Source of the DNA: Clostridia bacterium
GTDB taxonomy: Bacteria > Bacillota > Clostridia > Oscillospirales > Acutalibacteraceae
NCBI GenBank assembly: GCA_017630655.1
Contig: JAGBUU010000049.1
Span: 1 to 59,071 of the forward strand
Direction of reading: 5' to 3'
Length of the DNA stretch: 59,071 nt
The notes below the pieces were generated by a model. The model was not told the origin of the DNA, ran no database searches, and saw nothing but the letters and a program-made list of their open reading frames with translations. This document shows, in pieces, positions 1 through 9,471 of this stretch (positions within the stretch are counted from its first letter, which is position 1; each line of letters starts with the position of its first letter). The position numbers and the translations under genes are program-made.

Positions 1-49
1 GATCGTTTTGTTCTTCTATCAACAAATCATAATGATCGATTACATCCAT
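1..49 (-). CDS. 5' end of an unidentified CDS leaving the window (MDVIDHYDLLIEEQND...)
   Basis: ATG at 49 on the minus strand with GAGG 8 nt upstream. The frame is open to the window edge. Only 16 codons are visible, so no product call. Confidence 0.35.
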   Translation of the reverse strand, partial: MDVIDHYDLLIEEQND

Positions 50-89
50 AGCAACTACCTCTGTCAAATTCTTGATTTTAGGTGAGTCA

Positions 90-118
90 ATTATACCACA
101 CTTTCGCAAATAAATCAA
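90..118 (-). promoter_or_regulatory. sigma-A type promoter for the CDS starting at 49
   Basis: Minus strand reads TTGATT (118-113), 17-nt spacer, TGgTATAAT (98-90, extended -10). Confidence 0.5.
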
Positions 119-270
119 GGCAAAGCCTTGTATATCATCCGCAACTTGTTGCGGCATATCATCAATGCGGAGCATTGTATCTCATCAAGCCGCAGGGAGA
201 TGCACGCTGACGCGTGATGATATGCACCGCACTTCGCGCGGTGATGATATACCAAGCCTGCGGCTTGGAT
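116..270. repeat. Hairpin-linker repeat array 1 (seven short GC hairpins, conserved ATATCAT/ATGATAT linkers)
   Basis: Stems at 116-130, 139-154, 163-177, 203-216, 225-243 and 252-268, plus a degenerate unit at 186-197. Linkers are TATATCAT, CATATCAT and TATCTCAT, followed by ATGATAT twice. Confidence 0.75.
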
Positions 271-313: not shown

Positions 314-405
314 TGGCGGAGAAGGAGGGATTCGAACCCTCGAACCACTTTTAATGGTTACACGATTTCCAATCGTGCGCGCTCGACCAACTACGCGACT
401 TCTCC
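314..405 (-). tRNA. tRNA-Ser (anticodon GGA), CCA encoded
   Basis: Hand-folded cloverleaf. Acceptor GGAGAAG/CTTCTCC, D stem GCG/CGC, anticodon stem CACGA/TCGTG with loop TTGGAAA, long variable arm AACCA..TGGTT, T arm GAGGG-TTCGAAT-CCCTC, 3' GCCA. Confidence 0.95.
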
Positions 406-421
406 GTATTAGCCGAAGACT

Positions 422-450
422 ATTATACATAGTCATCGGCAAAAAATCAA
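422..450 (-). promoter_or_regulatory. sigma-A type promoter for tRNA-Ser
   Basis: Minus strand reads TTGATT (450-445), 17 nt, TATAAT (427-422), about 10-15 nt upstream of the tRNA 5' end. Confidence 0.55.
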
Positions 451-4556: not shown

Positions 4557-5096
4557 TTATTTAAAGAAAAGGGGAAGTTTTTCAAGAAAATTTATATCGG
4601 TGCGGTCGGCCGCATCACCTTCTGCAAGAACGGCACATGCCCCTGCTTCTATACCGCCTGCTTTACTTAGTAGGTCACGAATAGAGTTTAAGGACTCGCC
4701 TGTAGATATTACATCGTCAACAATAAGTACTTTTTTACCGTTTATTAGATTTGCTTCGTCTTCGCCGAGATATAAACGTTGTTCTCTTTGAGTGGTTATA
4801 GAATGAACGGTAACCTCAATAGGTCTACCCATATAAACCTTGGTGCCTTTTCTGGCAACAATATAGGGTTTGCCCGACTGACGAGACATTTCGTAGGCTA
4901 AAGGAATGCTCTTTGCTTCGGGAGTTAAAATAAAATCAAACTCGGGAGCCTTTTTAAGAAGCTCTGTTGCAGATGCAACGGTAATTTCGGTATCTCCAAA
5001 AAGGATAAATGCCGCAATATCTAAACTATCAGACACTGGGAAAAGCTTTAAATTTCGCTCAAGTCCTGCAATTTTCATTGTATAAAATTCAGACAT
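4557..5096 (-). CDS. Phosphoribosyltransferase family protein (Apt/Xpt-like)
   Basis: 179 aa. PRPP-binding loop VLIVDDVISTGES. Confidence 0.75.
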   Translation of the reverse strand: MSEFYTMKIAGLERNLKLFPVSDSLDIAAFILFGDTEITVASATELLKKAPEFDFILTPEAKSIPLAYEMSRQSGKPYIVARKGTKVYMGRPIEVTVHSITTQREQRLYLGEDEANLINGKKVLIVDDVISTGESLNSIRDLLSKAGGIEAGACAVLAEGDAADRTDINFLEKLPLFFK

Positions 5097-5458: not shown

Positions 5459-8080
5459 CTACTTAATCATATTTGCGATAATATCCTTTGCAGCGGCTAC
5501 TGCCTCGTCTGCCTTGGATATATCCTTGCCGCCCGCCATTGCACTATCGGGTTTTCCGCCGCCGTTACCGCCGGCTATCTTTGCAACCTCACGAACAATA
5601 TTTCCGGCATTTGCACCCTTTGTTATGGCATCCTTACCCGCAGCGGCACAGAAGGTCAGTTTATCTCCGTTAACTGCAGCAAAAAGGCAAACGGCACAAT
5701 CATTATCGCCCTTAACTTTATCGCACATTGTTCTAAGGTCGTTTGGCTGTGTACCATCAAGACGAGCAGTGATAATCTTAACACCATTAACCTCGTTTGC
5801 ACCTGCCATAAGGTCGGAAATCTTAGAGCCTGCAAGTTTTGCGTTAAGTGCTTCTACCTTTTTCTCGCTCTCTTTAAGTTCAGCCGCTACTGCACGGGCC
5901 TTTGCTGCAATTTCCATAGGATTTGCACTCTTAATAGCATCGGCAGCATCGTCGATAATGCCCTTATATTTATTAAGAAGGTCTAAAACATTTGCACCTG
6001 TAACCGCTTCAATACGGCGTACGCCTGCGGCAACAGAGGTTTCGGATACAATCTTGATAAGACCGATTTTAGCGGTATTGTCAACGTGGGTACCACCGCA
6101 GAGTTCTATAGAGAAGCCTTCCGCATTAACAACACGAACAACATCTCCGTACTTCTCTCCAAAAAGTGCCATTGCGCCGAGTTTTTTAGCCTCATCAATA
6201 GGCATTTCTCTGTTATCAACATTAATGCCCTGTAAAATCTTAGTGTTGATGAGGGATTCAACAGCATTAATTTCTTCAGCAGTTAAAGCCGAGAAATGTG
6301 TAAAGTCGAAACGAACTACCGCATCATTTACAAGTTGTCCTGCCTGCTCAACATGGTTGCCAAGAACAGTACGGAGTGCCGCCTGAAGAAGATGGGCTGC
6401 GGTATGGTTTCTGCGGATAGCAGCTCTTCGGTCGGCATCTATAATTGCGGTTACCTTGTCACCTACAGACACAGAGCCTGCTTCTACTTCTACCATGTGG
6501 GTAAAGATACCACCGGCCTTTGTGGTGTTAGACACCATAATATTACAGTTTGCATTAGAAATTACGCCTGTATCTCCAACCTGACCGCCGCCTTCGCCGT
6601 AGAAAACGGTTTTATCTAAAACGATAAGAGCCTTTTCGCCCTCACCTACTGTATCGGTAAGTTCACCGCCGACAACAATAGCCTTAACGGTAGCTTCTAC
6701 TGTAGTATCGGTATAGCCGAGGAAAACAGTATCTTCTACACCGTCAAAGGAAATTCCATCACTCTTCCAGGATTCAGAGTCGGAGGCTTTTCTTCCCTCT
6801 CTTGCCCTTCTTCTTTGTTCATCCATAAGAGCCTTAAAGCCATCCTCGTCAACAGTCATATTCTTTTCCTGTAAAATATCTTTTGTAAGGTCAAATGGGA
6901 ATCCATAGGTATCATAAAGTTTGAAGGCATCCTCTGCAGAGAGTGTGCCACCCTTTGCGGTTAAATCTTCAAGCATTGAAAGGCCAAGGTCTATGGTCTT
7001 TGCAAATGCCTTTTCTTCATTAGCTATAACCTTTAAGATGAACTCCTTGCGGCTTTCAAGGTCGGGATAAGCGTTCTTGCTTTCTTCAATAGCAACTGTT
7101 GCGGTCTCGGTTAAAAATGCACGAGTAATGCCGAGCAATCTTCCGTGGCGTGCGGCTCTTCTAATAAGTCGGCGAAGCACGTAGCCTCTGCCCTCGTTAG
7201 AAGGTACAACACCGTCGCAAATCATAAAGGTTGCACTGCGAGAGTGGTCAGTAATAGCACGAATTGAAACATCATTATTCTTATCCTTGCCATATTCTTT
7301 ACCCGCAATATCACAAACGGTATCTAAAATTCTGCGAACAGAATCAACCTCGAACATATTGTCAACGCCCTGCATTACACAAGCAAGACGCTCAAGACCC
7401 ATACCTGTATCAATATTCTTATGCTCAAGCTCGGTATAGGTGCCGTCACCCATATTGTTAAACTGGGTGAAAACGTTGTTCCAGATTTCCATATATCTGT
7501 CACATTCGCAACCCGGCTTACAGTCAGGAGAGCCACAACCGTATTTTTCACCACGGTCGAAATATATTTCGCTGCAAGGTCCGCAAGGGCCTGTTCCGTG
7601 CTCCCAGAAGTTATCTGCCTTGCCAAGCTTTACAATGCGATTTTCGGGCACGCCGATAACATCTCTCCAGAGAGCATAAGCTTCATCGTCCTGCTCATAC
7701 ACCGAGGGCCAAAGAAGCTCTTCGGGTATTTCTAAGGTTTTGGTTAAAAATTCCCAAGCCCACGGAATAGCATCACTTTTAAAGTAATCTCCAAAAGAGA
7801 AATTGCCGAGCATTTCGAAGAATGTACCATGGCGTGCGGTATGACCCACACGCTCGAGGTCGGGTGTTCTTATACATTTTTGACAGGTTGTTACCCTATT
7901 TCTTGGAGGTGTCACCTCGCCCGTGAAGAATTTTTTCATAGGAGCCATTCCTGAATTTATGAGAAGCAGAGACTTGTCTCCCTGAGGTACCAAGGGGTAA
8001 CTAGGCAGACGAAGATGACCTTTGCTCTCAAAATAGGAAAGATATTTTTCTCTTAAATCGTTAAGTGAAGTCCATTGCAT
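5459..8080 (-). CDS. alaS: Alanine--tRNA ligase
   Basis: 873 aa. Class II AlaRS N-terminus (FFESKGH...), editing-domain HTAAHLL and CGGTH motifs. Confidence 0.97.
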   Translation of the reverse strand: MQWTSLNDLREKYLSYFESKGHLRLPSYPLVPQGDKSLLLINSGMAPMKKFFTGEVTPPRNRVTTCQKCIRTPDLERVGHTARHGTFFEMLGNFSFGDYFKSDAIPWAWEFLTKTLEIPEELLWPSVYEQDDEAYALWRDVIGVPENRIVKLGKADNFWEHGTGPCGPCSEIYFDRGEKYGCGSPDCKPGCECDRYMEIWNNVFTQFNNMGDGTYTELEHKNIDTGMGLERLACVMQGVDNMFEVDSVRRILDTVCDIAGKEYGKDKNNDVSIRAITDHSRSATFMICDGVVPSNEGRGYVLRRLIRRAARHGRLLGITRAFLTETATVAIEESKNAYPDLESRKEFILKVIANEEKAFAKTIDLGLSMLEDLTAKGGTLSAEDAFKLYDTYGFPFDLTKDILQEKNMTVDEDGFKALMDEQRRRAREGRKASDSESWKSDGISFDGVEDTVFLGYTDTTVEATVKAIVVGGELTDTVGEGEKALIVLDKTVFYGEGGGQVGDTGVISNANCNIMVSNTTKAGGIFTHMVEVEAGSVSVGDKVTAIIDADRRAAIRRNHTAAHLLQAALRTVLGNHVEQAGQLVNDAVVRFDFTHFSALTAEEINAVESLINTKILQGINVDNREMPIDEAKKLGAMALFGEKYGDVVRVVNAEGFSIELCGGTHVDNTAKIGLIKIVSETSVAAGVRRIEAVTGANVLDLLNKYKGIIDDAADAIKSANPMEIAAKARAVAAELKESEKKVEALNAKLAGSKISDLMAGANEVNGVKIITARLDGTQPNDLRTMCDKVKGDNDCAVCLFAAVNGDKLTFCAAAGKDAITKGANAGNIVREVAKIAGGNGGGKPDSAMAGGKDISKADEAVAAAKDIIANMIK

Positions 8081-8337: not shown

Positions 8338-9471
8338 GTGGCATCTATAGATTTTACTCATGCACCTTATGGCGACCTTGCTATTGTAGCAATGAGAGGT
8401 TGCGAAGATATTGCAAAACAGGTAGACTACTATCTTATGCAGTGGAGAGGCACACCTAAGGAACAATCTTTTGTGATTAATGCTAACTGTCCACGTTTTG
8501 GAACAGGCGAGGCAAAGGGCGTTTTCAAGCATTCTGCCCGTGGTCTTGACGCTTATATTATTTGCGACTGTTTCAACTACAGTGTTACCTACAACATGTA
8601 TGGTAAAGAGGTGCCTATGAGTCCCGACGACCACTACCAAGACCTAAAGCGTATTATCGCTGCTATGGGTGGTAAAGCAAGACGTGTAAACGTTATTATG
8701 CCTATGCTTTACGAAGGCAGACAGCACAGACGTACCGCAAGAGAATCTATGGACTGTGCTATGATGCTACAGGAACTAATGTCAATGGGTGTTACAAACT
8801 TTATTACCTTTGATGCTCACGACCCCCGTGTTAACAACGCTATCCCCCTTGGTGGTTTTGACAACGTACAAGCCACCTATCAAATGATTAAGGCTCTGCT
8901 CCGCAGTGTTCCCGACATGAAACTCGACCCCGAGCATACAATGATAGCTTCTCCCGACGAGGGCGGAATGGGACGTTGTATTTACTATTCATCGGTTTTA
9001 GGTCTTGACCTGGGTATGTTCTACAAAAGAAGGGATTATTCAACTATCGTTGATGGAAGAAATCCAATTGTCGCACACGAATGGCTTGGCAAGGATGTTG
9101 CCGGAATGGACCTTATCCTTGTTGACGATATGATTTCTTCGGGCGAATCTATGCTTGATATCGCCGCTAAACTTAAGGAGAAGGGTGCAAATCGTATCTT
9201 TATCTTCTCGACCTTTGGTCTTTTCGTAAACGGACTTGATAAATTCGATGAGTACTACGAAAATGGAATGATTGATAAAATCTTCACCACTAACTTAATT
9301 TACAACACTCCTGAACTGTTAAGCAGAGATTGGTACTGTAACGTTAATATGTGCAAATATATTTCATTGCTTGTTGATACCATAAACTGCGATAATTCTA
9401 TAAGCGGACTTTTAGACCCAGCAGATAAGATTCACGCCATTGTTGCTAAACACGAAGGAAAATCAGAATAA
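8338..9471 (+). CDS. prs: Ribose-phosphate pyrophosphokinase (long Clostridial form)
   Basis: Prs-like motifs (MPMLYEGRQHRR, ITFDAHDPRV, LILVDDMISSGES). Start moved from the ORF-track 8236 to GTG 8338, which has GGAGG 8 nt upstream. Confidence 0.85.
   Translation: MASIDFTHAPYGDLAIVAMRGCEDIAKQVDYYLMQWRGTPKEQSFVINANCPRFGTGEAKGVFKHSARGLDAYIICDCFNYSVTYNMYGKEVPMSPDDHYQDLKRIIAAMGGKARRVNVIMPMLYEGRQHRRTARESMDCAMMLQELMSMGVTNFITFDAHDPRVNNAIPLGGFDNVQATYQMIKALLRSVPDMKLDPEHTMIASPDEGGMGRCIYYSSVLGLDLGMFYKRRDYSTIVDGRNPIVAHEWLGKDVAGMDLILVDDMISSGESMLDIAAKLKEKGANRIFIFSTFGLFVNGLDKFDEYYENGMIDKIFTTNLIYNTPELLSRDWYCNVNMCKYISLLVDTINCDNSISGLLDPADKIHAIVAKHEGKSE

Follow-up and report, generated by a model that had tools for sequence, protein, structure and literature searches.

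A hairpin-linker array behind a tRNA-Ser gene of a Clostridia bacterium may point to a new kind of gene-capture element

The window analysed here is a whole stretch of 59,071 nucleotides (nt), contig JAGBUU010000049.1 of a Clostridia bacterium; array coordinates are given on the plus strand unless marked otherwise. Next to a tRNA-Ser gene near its left end, six hairpins and one half-hairpin lie at 116-268, joined by the linker GYATMTCATCA (3 forward copies, 2 reverse copies and 1 terminal partial copy). We conclude with high confidence that this 155-base array is one copy of a widespread module situated just after tRNA genes in gut Clostridia, and it may point to a new kind of gene-capture element. 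The features of the array and its flanks are the following.

1-65, minus strand: 5' end of a cassette without a promoter, with a ribosome-binding site, a start codon (ATG, 49-47) and the N-terminal sequence MDVIDHYDLLIEEQND of an S-adenosylmethionine (SAM)-dependent methyltransferase of 197 aa, which runs off the window
66-89, minus strand: junction motif TGACTCACCTAAAATCAAGAATTT; the boundary of conserved platform and cassette falls between 65 and 66
90-118, minus strand: outward promoter, with -35 TTGATT (118-113, overlapping H1), a 17-nt spacer and a TG-extended -10 TATAAT (95-90)
116-130, plus strand: hairpin H1, CAAGGC-aaa-GCCTTG, 6 bp, 3-nt loop (exhaustive hairpin scan)
After H1, plus strand: linker TATATCAT(C), from the sequence
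131-186, plus strand: core of the distal arm, namely linker TATATCATC, hairpin 139-154, linker CATATCATC, hairpin 163-177 and linker TATCTCATC
139-154, plus strand: hairpin H2, CCGCAA-cttg-TTGCGG, 6 bp, 4-nt loop (hairpin scan)
After H2, plus strand: linker CATATCAT(C), from the sequence
163-177, plus strand: hairpin H3, CAATGC-gga-GCATTG, 6 bp, 3-nt loop (hairpin scan)
After H3, plus strand: linker TATCTCAT(C), from the sequence
186-196, plus strand: central segment C, CAAGCCGCAGG, a half-copy of H7, complementary to 257-267 at 11 of 11 positions (inverted repeat I12)
195-202, minus strand: terminal partial linker of the proximal arm, GGGAGATG(C); it reads GCATCTCCC on the minus strand at 195-203
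203-216, minus strand: hairpin CACGC-tgac-GCGTG, 5 bp, 4-nt loop, the commonest innermost hairpin of the family
216-223, minus strand: reverse linker GATGATAT-G, which reads TGCATATCATCA on the minus strand
225-243, minus strand: hairpin CACCGC..GCGGTG with a single A231/C237 mismatch (read from the sequence)
243-250, minus strand: reverse linker GATGATAT-A, which reads GGTATATCATCA on the minus strand
252-268, minus strand: hairpin H7, the first of the tRNA-proximal arm, CCAAGCC-tgc-GGCTTGG on the plus strand and CCAAGCC-gca-GGCTTGG on the minus strand, 7 bp, 3-nt loop
272-314, minus strand: intrinsic terminator of the module, consisting of an A-run, a 17-bp hairpin (arms 272-288 and 298-314, inverted repeat I1, 100% complementary) and a T-run
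314-405, minus strand: tRNA-Ser(GGA) (ARAGORN; Rfam tRNA, 58.7 bits)

The forward linkers read ATATCATC/ATCTCATC at 132-139, 156-163 and 179-186, and the reverse linkers GATGATAT at 216-223 and 243-250. The hairpin scan and direct reading recovered the stem-loops proposed for this region by an initial annotation, which was made from the sequence, with perfect stems everywhere but at A231/C237 in 225-243. That annotation had taken this mismatch for a G-U pair on the minus strand; this fits, as it is a G.T wobble there, beside the c-GAA-g triloop that the hairpin closes. It was mistaken, however, in describing 186-197 as a decayed unit: this is a conserved central segment, exactly complementary to 257-267 and covarying with it across the family. 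Since GGGAGATG, which reads GCATCTC on the minus strand, is the normal terminal partial linker of the right arm, the array in the window represents a 3+2 version of the canonical 3+3 array. The terminator at 272-314 abuts the CCA of the tRNA without a spacer. Among the array hairpins, a terminator scan flagged solely 130-116 on the minus strand; T-runs are absent after the others, which are followed by the linker instead.

According to the exhaustive hairpin scan, the array has the highest density of GC hairpins in the 59 kb, and no second array with the GYATMTCATCA linker is present in the window. The motif ATATCAT occurs 22 times, versus 8.4 ± 2.9 expected, with four copies within 120 nt at the array. 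When folded as single-stranded DNA, 108-272 reached -43.7 kcal/mol on the plus strand and -44.4 on the minus strand, versus about -24 for dinucleotide shuffles (z-scores of -6.8 and -7.4, respectively; 0 of 200 shuffles as good). An open frame is found in 113-271, but homologous copies differ there by hairpin swaps and indels. Rfam searched over 116-270 with E up to 10 gave nothing better than E 1.9, only the tRNA passing; the initial annotation had likewise been unable to assign a named repeat family.

A scan for the linker-pair pattern with one genome per species, in which the locus count is a lower bound, yielded at least 120 array loci. Among the matches listed, nearly all were from Clostridia, Oscillospiraceae, Acutalibacteraceae, Christensenellaceae or 'Eubacteriales' gut metagenome-assembled genomes, to which Yanshouia hominis BX1, a cultured carrier (contig NZ_JACRTB010000006.1, locus L179), has to be added. 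The possibility that the array had no other copies, which had been raised beforehand, was thus contradicted by hundreds to thousands of them. The blastn identity between the window and family loci was 70-83% across about 90-316, and the homologous unit therefore spans from the -10 box to the tRNA end. The initial annotation had missed this larger inserted module, in which the array is combined with a terminator, a promoter and cassette genes. The literature, queried with keywords and with the sequence string, contained no description of a hairpin-linker element that we could find; as far as these searches go the family is undescribed, and it apparently matches no known one.

In 82 arrays (among the matches listed), forward linkers are followed by reverse ones, the arrangement +++--- of about 200 nt being dominant; the inverted three-unit arrangement noticed in the window turned out to be the canonical architecture of the family. 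The common order in 78 oriented copies is AAATCA, H1, three forward linkers with hairpins, the centre segment, a short stretch that is T-rich or reads 'GATAC', three reverse linkers with their hairpins, H7, GGATAAAAA, the hairpin of the terminator, TTTTTT, TGG (CCA in reverse complement) and the tRNA 3' end. The AAATCA preceding H1 is nearly invariant, about half of the family has a -10 box at a fixed distance, H7 is conserved in position family-wide with two main sequence types and the conserved GGATAAAAA after it, and all arrays end with GYATMTC. The window contains all elements of this order at 405-90, and its linker is present more than three times (5 full copies and 1 terminal partial copy) with a GC hairpin in every spacer.

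The hairpins of the family are strand-specific. Out of 445 spacers, 433 fold as a hairpin, mostly with stems of 6-7 bp, and these comprise 108 different stem arms, joined by a linker (G-Y-A-T-M-T-C-A-T-C-A) that is almost invariant over 312 copies. The initial description of different but self-complementary stems with conserved linkers is borne out. On the linker-sense strand, the loop is G-N-A or G-N-N-A in 282 of the 433 hairpins (65%), 278 of these being closed by a C.G pair, versus 5 of 433 (1%) on the complementary strand. G.T wobbles showed the same bias (17 on the linker-sense strand versus 3 on the other one). Furthermore, 44 of the 105 GNNA loops (42%) break the GNRA rule of RNA, and all are compatible with d(cGNAg) or d(cGNNAg). 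Hirao and Yoshizawa reportedly showed in the 1990s that d(cGNAg) triloops form exceptionally stable DNA mini-hairpins, and d(cGNNAg) was reportedly described by Nakano in 2002 as another such motif. The folded strand would probably be DNA rather than RNA.

The linker-to-linker spacing varies from 19 to 46 nt, which speaks against a helically phased duplex array and suits a folded strand indifferent to hairpin length. Of the two explanations put forward in the initial annotation, selection on single-strand structure is thus borne out by the stem covariation and by the strand bias of loops and wobbles, whereas the helically phased array is not. At the two positions where the linker varies, no covariation between left and right copies was observed, so that the linker:linker helices of the minimum free energy fold are unsupported. 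For this reason, and because unidirectional arrays exist, we rejected the linker-linker pairing (L1:L6', L2:L5', L3:L4') that ViennaRNA displays as a 'ladder of four-way junctions'. The centre and the 3' half of H7 do covary, with perfect complementarity over at least 9 nt in 61 of 78 arrays and at least 7 sequence variants; mismatched pairs of arrays mostly give 3-6 nt. This complementarity may reflect either pairing or a shared recombination core. An inversion switch between centre and H7 was also considered, but a search for the flipped ++++++ form beside a terminator and tRNA gave no clear case. Each inverted arm is sense on a different strand. The negative GC skew of the plus strand suggests that, in the window, the leading-strand sequence is that of the minus strand; the presumed lagging-strand template would then carry the tRNA, the cassette and, from the tRNA-proximal arm, the sense strand.

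Among the fetched loci, the array was found after 44 of the 67 cluster-terminal tRNAs with enough downstream sequence, representing 22 anticodon species. The tRNA always points at the H7 side, in the order CCA, terminator, array, and in this single orientation. In other genomes, the array is accompanied by this terminator sequence of the module where it stands behind tRNA-Glu, tRNA-Leu and a fragment of tRNA-Arg. Where no full tRNA adjoined the array, a 14-45 nt 3' fragment of a tRNA or of a transfer-messenger RNA was present instead, and at seven loci an intact tRNA was found 170-485 nt further on. These displaced tRNAs indicate that a later small insertion, or a prophage/integrase element (in the loci designated L133 and L243), split the tRNA from the array. 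Such tRNA-splitting insertions explain two of the three groups of 'viral' matches (L133/L142 and L144).

Comparison of orthologous tRNA-Ser flanks revealed empty and filled sites. The array was absent from relatives whose neighbouring WYL protein is 99%, 92% and 84% identical; they have the same tRNA-Ser, with unrelated sequence right after the CCA; an exact look-up of the window's WYL protein gave no match. The array was present in L369 and L371, contigs of the same species as the window whose RNase M5 is identical to the window's, with a difference of one linker base and a compensated swap of H1, CAACGGC-aa-GCCGTTG replacing the hairpin of the window. The first gene behind the promoter in L369 and L371 encodes an XRE-type helix-turn-helix protein, unlike the window's. 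Positions 6900-7154 of L002 (the 92% relative) correspond to 7585-7842 of L371, and 7145-7199 to 8909-8964, which means that 1.07 kb was inserted in L371 between the CCA and the native terminator, the latter directly following the CCA in L002. This block consists of a new terminator, an array, a promoter, one gene and an end segment. In L178 and L244, two units are present in tandem, with nearly identical arrays and different genes. A direct repeat of the tRNA 3' segment was found in L208 (19 nt long, at a distance of 1.1 kb) and in L266 (at least 25 nt long, at 1.65 kb). No such repeat was found for L371 or L178, whose units border directly on the native terminator; the junctions of these two loci also had no target-site duplication.

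We also noted a second class of tiny insertions, of about 170-485 nt, between a 16-22 nt tRNA 3' fragment and an intact tRNA (L144 741-920; L192, L187, L210, L250, L261 and L165). They carry their own hairpin terminator, often with a T-arm-like 'GGTTCGAATCC' piece, and resemble minimal gene-less tRNA-integrating elements. In the 84% relative, the same tRNA-Ser flank holds a truncated gene for a large serine recombinase (L004 7351-7953; Recombinase and Zn_ribbon_recom), making this tRNA-Ser end a general hot spot for differing mobile elements. In the window, the tRNA-Ser has its own promoter (TTGATT-17-TATAAT; 422-450, minus strand) between the WYL regulator gene (458-1462) and the tRNA, with a -35 hexamer identical to that of the module's outward promoter.

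The gene truncated at the end of the window was recovered in four more contigs by a degenerate search. In all five contexts, the window included, it is preceded by ...AAATAAGAATTT|GAC(A/G)GAGG..ATG. The cassette stands in first or second position. The junction ...AAGAATTT|GACAGAGG also precedes the methyltransferase gene in four other contexts, in which the gene is the second one behind array and promoter (L374), stands behind a variant array (L376) or, twice, follows other genes. The full-length copy in L373 belongs to Pfam Methyltransf_31/25/11. Apart from this methyltransferase, the cassette genes of L373 and L374 encode a GNAT protein, XRE regulators, a chromate transporter and lipoproteins. 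A 41-nt element, ACAAATTCCAATAGGTCGAACAGTTAGRAAAATAAGAATTT, separates consecutive small genes (L373 40-92 and 700-745; L374 660-712); it is bounded by a 7-bp inverted repeat (CAAATTC/GAATTTG) and contains GTTAGRA and no extended hairpin. Shorter 'AAATTCCAATTTRTCGA' versions were observed at cassette 3' ends in L178, L213, L224, L232, L244, L250 and L371. If a cassette circle formed, it would have AAGAATTT joined to AAATTCCAAT.

To look for recombinases, 249 open reading frames (ORFs) from the flanks were clustered and 150 of them scanned with Pfam, and jackhmmer searches seeded with XerD and gamma-delta resolvase were run against 1442 ORFs from about 130 loci. Phage_integrase was absent from the 25 most frequent Pfam families in the 150 flank ORFs, and neither set contained an array-linked integrase within 6 kb. 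The sole recurrent neighbour was a protein of about 115 aa of family PF05635 (E 2e-18), encoded directly behind the array promoter. To our knowledge, this family has so far been known only as an accessory factor of diversity-generating retroelements (DGRs) and as the ORF of 23S rRNA intervening sequences. Close homologues number about 3000, many on contigs shorter than 1.5 kb, and the best 120 are 81-95% identical. When 30 of these places were examined, the array lay immediately upstream in all 27 loci whose upstream sequence reached about 130 nt or more; many PF05635 contigs begin inside an array. In L244, the gene is preceded by the array promoter and followed by a second promoter-plus-junction heading the cassettes, which makes PF05635 a component of the platform. 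The family carries the name '23S rRNA intervening sequence protein' and shares homology with Avd, an accessory protein of DGRs (PMC10053308). As side observations, the PF05635 gene is often followed, with overlap in some loci, by a gene for an AAA_15/AAA_21 ATPase of 197-243 aa (L377-L386, L387-L396), which recalls the ATPases of defence systems, and a large serine recombinase of 547 aa is encoded about 450 nt upstream of the array in L377-L380.

These findings led us to propose that the array forms a conserved 'head', acting in cis, for a small non-autonomous unit that is inserted precisely between the tRNA CCA and the original terminator. The unit supplies, in order, a replacement terminator for the tRNA, the array, an outward promoter (its -35 box overlapping H1), and one or more promoterless, strain-variable genes. 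Its identity as a mobile platform at tRNA ends is, in our judgement, highly probable. Our proposal for the mechanism is more tentative and somewhat less likely to be right than wrong: the array would act as a folded single strand, more probably of DNA than of RNA, on which GC hairpins capped by c-GNA-g or c-GNNA-g loops would snap shut on the strand reading GYATMTCATCA, so as to display the invariant 11-nt linkers at a constant distance whatever the length of the hairpins. A factor encoded in trans, either a recombinase or the linked PF05635/Avd-like four-helix-bundle protein, might read the displayed linkers and serve insertion of the unit, exchange of the promoter-cassette part, or both. The inverted arms put one 'sense' arm on each strand. 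As a compromise between its two parts, the combined reading is in our view evenly balanced.

Several observations weigh against this reading. The empty and filled sites were compared between species-level relatives, not isogenic strains, and no circular or excised form was observed. The preference for DNA rests on loop-motif thermodynamics from the literature. Unidirectional arrays of 3-9 units occur away from tRNAs, indicating that the array can exist without the platform. The TATAAT...AAGAATTT junction is present in 8 of 68 other platforms (about 12%), and other subfamilies have a different promoter-proximal conservation, so that the exchange of cassettes is demonstrated for the window's subfamily only. 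The flank searches identified no enzyme for movement of the unit: the recombinases found (1 tyrosine recombinase in L243 and 2 serine recombinases in L242) all belong to separate elements interrupting the tRNA. Finally, the PF05635 gene adjoins the array in only about 17% of the copies.

We considered the possibility that the array is read as a duplex, its 11-bp linkers being operator, UP-type or integrase arm-type sites for promoter control or for a recombination complex, and its spacers being incidental or bound by a second dimeric protein. The nearly invariant linker, the overlap of H1 with the -35 box and the three direct plus three inverted sites by the insertion junction, which resemble attP arms, agree with this. 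Yet the 19-46 nt spacing keeps no helical register, 108 self-complementary stem sequences and strand-specific loops would be unexpected, no integrase was found within 6 kb, and some arrays are far from any promoter or on its other side. We therefore regard a duplex array as unlikely. A structured RNA made by read-through of the tRNA or from another transcript, functioning as an exonuclease barrier or insulator, as a loading site for Rho or an RNA-binding protein (there are two UC per linker) or as a protein sponge, appears slightly less likely still. It would account for the G.U-type wobble asymmetry and the strong folding, the tRNA-proximal arm is 'sense' on the transcribed strand, and in the phage contig L024 a one-directional array followed by a hairpin and T-run lies just upstream of terS. 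However, since the array sits between an intrinsic terminator and a promoter firing away from it, no transcript of it is predicted, and the sense strand of the distal arm has no promoter. The predominance of c-GNA-g triloops, the GNNA loops that depart from the GNRA rule, the lack of covariation between left and right linkers and the absence of any Rfam match also argue against RNA.

A purely selfish repeat, similar to the repetitive extragenic palindromic (REP) sequences or to miniature inverted-repeat transposable elements (MITEs), could have been spread by replication slippage or by an unlinked hairpin-recognising nuclease of the RAYT (REP-associated tyrosine transposase)/IS200 type, its association with tRNAs, promoters and cassettes being secondary, as in a safe harbour. 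High copy number, assembly breaks, varying numbers of units with hairpin types re-used in different orders (L233, L226) and partial linkers at the array boundaries would all be compatible with this. We nevertheless consider it improbable, because the array keeps a strictly fixed place and direction with respect to the tRNA CCA, because both the 3+3 layout and the covariation of centre and H7 are conserved, and because the linkage to one protein family is tight. No RAYT was seen in the 8-kb flanks, in which no dedicated search for it was made, and no HUH or transposase gene was seen nearby, a genome-wide search not having been made. The pile-up of decayed terminators mentioned in the initial annotation, or a chance cluster of palindromes, can be excluded: the array does adjoin a genuine terminator, and hairpin 130-116 (minus strand) scores as terminator-like, but the other hairpins have no T-runs, the fold z-scores are far from those of shuffled sequence and both linker and layout recur in hundreds of homologous copies.

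A prophage attP arm or a cos/pac site was rejected as a general explanation. In L133, where tRNA-Pro is split by a prophage, the array is on the host side of this prophage; the array of L144 is beside a tRNA-Arg locus and was parted from the tRNA by a later small insertion; and the flanks of 78 loci consist of ordinary or accessory genes, without phage or integrase genes. Among viral contigs, L024 and its duplicates have the only clearly phage-borne arrays. The viral scans, performed with a three-linker and later a two-linker pattern, were dominated by coding tandem repeats of giant viruses, and blastn against phage and plasmid collections gave only weak matches to the terminator. As a side observation, L024 (8640-8760; also L124 and L129) has a one-directional array of five linkers with a hairpin/T-run, between a RusA/small Cys-rich module and terS/terL/portal, which is the usual place of a packaging or late-control site.

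By analogy, the module would work most like the platform of an integron (attI with its promoter Pc), and its hairpins recall the logic of attC sites. Both have a conserved outward-promoter platform, behind which stand small genes that lack a promoter and vary between strains (here methyltransferase, GNAT, XRE and lipoprotein genes), one cassette can recur in several arrays behind a fixed junction (in the window's subfamily only), and, as with attC, recognition would probably proceed via folded single strands of variable sequence with conserved short boxes. Unlike an integron, the module has no intI or adjacent recombinase (the XerD jackhmmer search gave 1 match in 1442 ORFs, in an unrelated element), it carries its hairpins in the platform rather than between the cassettes, where the 41-nt element has no extended hairpin, and the platform itself is inserted at tRNA CCA ends and can be repeated in tandem. 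It is conceivable, though rather doubtful, that this represents an integron-like form of gene capture, mechanistically unrelated to integrons, in which a non-autonomous platform of gut Clostridia inserts at almost any tRNA CCA, takes the place of the tRNA terminator, offers its own promoter to exchangeable promoterless cassettes and is recognised via strand-specific DNA mini-hairpins displaying the 11-nt linker, the Avd-like PF05635 protein binding the array together with a trans-acting recombinase.

Other known systems share fewer traits. REP sequences, their mosaics (bacterial interspersed mosaic elements, BIMEs) and the REPIN-RAYT system of Proteobacteria also form clusters of short intergenic palindromes, alternating or inverted, with linker motifs and high copy numbers, often at 3' ends of transcription units. 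In REP/BIME, however, the palindrome is conserved, whereas here the linkers are invariant and the stems vary (108 among 433); the module has no GTAG-type head, occupies a fixed position after the CCA and carries a promoter and a terminator. CRISPR arrays similarly alternate short conserved repeats with variable segments of similar length, but their repeats are 21-48 nt long, versus a conserved unit of 11 nt here, with spacers that are palindromic and shared between loci and with inverted arms; no cas genes turned up in the scanned flanking ORFs, for which no dedicated search was made. The initial annotation had rightly called the layout, with its conserved linker and variable stems, the opposite of REP/BIME or CRISPR. 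The arm-type sites of attP (lambda, L5, P4-like) and cis-mobilizable elements (CIMEs) also comprise direct or inverted repeats of about 11 bp at about 50-250 bp from a tRNA-linked junction, and non-autonomous units accreting in tandem at a tRNA. By contrast, the module has no linked integrase, its junction falls where CCA and terminator meet, and arm sites are characterised neither by covarying hairpins nor by variable spacing.

The ends of IS200/IS605 elements and palindrome-associated transposable elements (PATEs) share with the module strand-specific DNA hairpins, a presumed location on the lagging-strand template and non-autonomous derivatives. They have one conserved subterminal hairpin per end and a TnpA in the family, whereas the module has 3-9 hairpins with a conserved linker at one end of the unit only and no TnpA was seen. 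In contrast to MITEs, the inverted arms lie inside a polar unit with two different ends (terminator versus cassette end), and no target-site duplication was seen at the L371 and L178 junctions. DGRs resemble the module in the linkage to PF05635 through Avd and in GC-rich hairpins with G..A loops; Guo and colleagues reportedly described in 2011 a DGR GC hairpin with a GAAA loop downstream of the variable repeat (VR). There is an array here and not a single hairpin, and no reverse transcriptase, template repeat (TR)/VR pair or initiation of mutagenic homing (IMH) site was seen in the loci examined.

If the proposed reading were true, the module would offer a first way, through genomics, of approaching the stand-alone PF05635/Avd-like proteins; these are very common, and we know of no role for them outside DGRs. 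The logic of its cis-element would be the reverse of that of REP and CRISPR, with an invariant single-stranded linker and covarying DNA-type mini-hairpins, implying a mode of recognition that has not yet been described. It would also provide a platform for the capture of gene cassettes at the tRNA ends of abundant gut and rumen Clostridia, in a phylum, the Firmicutes, in whose genomes complete integrons have not been found (PMC4889954). From a practical point of view, the element breaks metagenome assemblies at tRNA loci, supplies a natural terminator-insulator-promoter module of compact size and marks hot spots where genes vary at the strain level.

Some minor observations concern the arrays themselves. 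Metagenome contigs often begin or stop in or beside an array or a tRNA (L384-L386, L391-L393, L397-L406; the end of L001/L370); because the element is such a frequent assembly breakpoint, its copy number is probably underestimated. The unidirectional arrays of L233 (about 800-1060) and L226 (7669-7815) have six to nine units and re-use three or four hairpin types in varied orders, which suggests shuffling or amplification of units via recombination or slippage at the linkers. Hairpin arrays with other linkers, TATGGAATC and TATGTCCTC, adjoin ATATCATC arrays in L223 (about 2440-2300, minus strand) and L147 (about 4990-5060), and the variant array of L376 has the linker (A/G)CATCAT. The hairpin-linker design may thus be a broader class with several linker 'dialects'.

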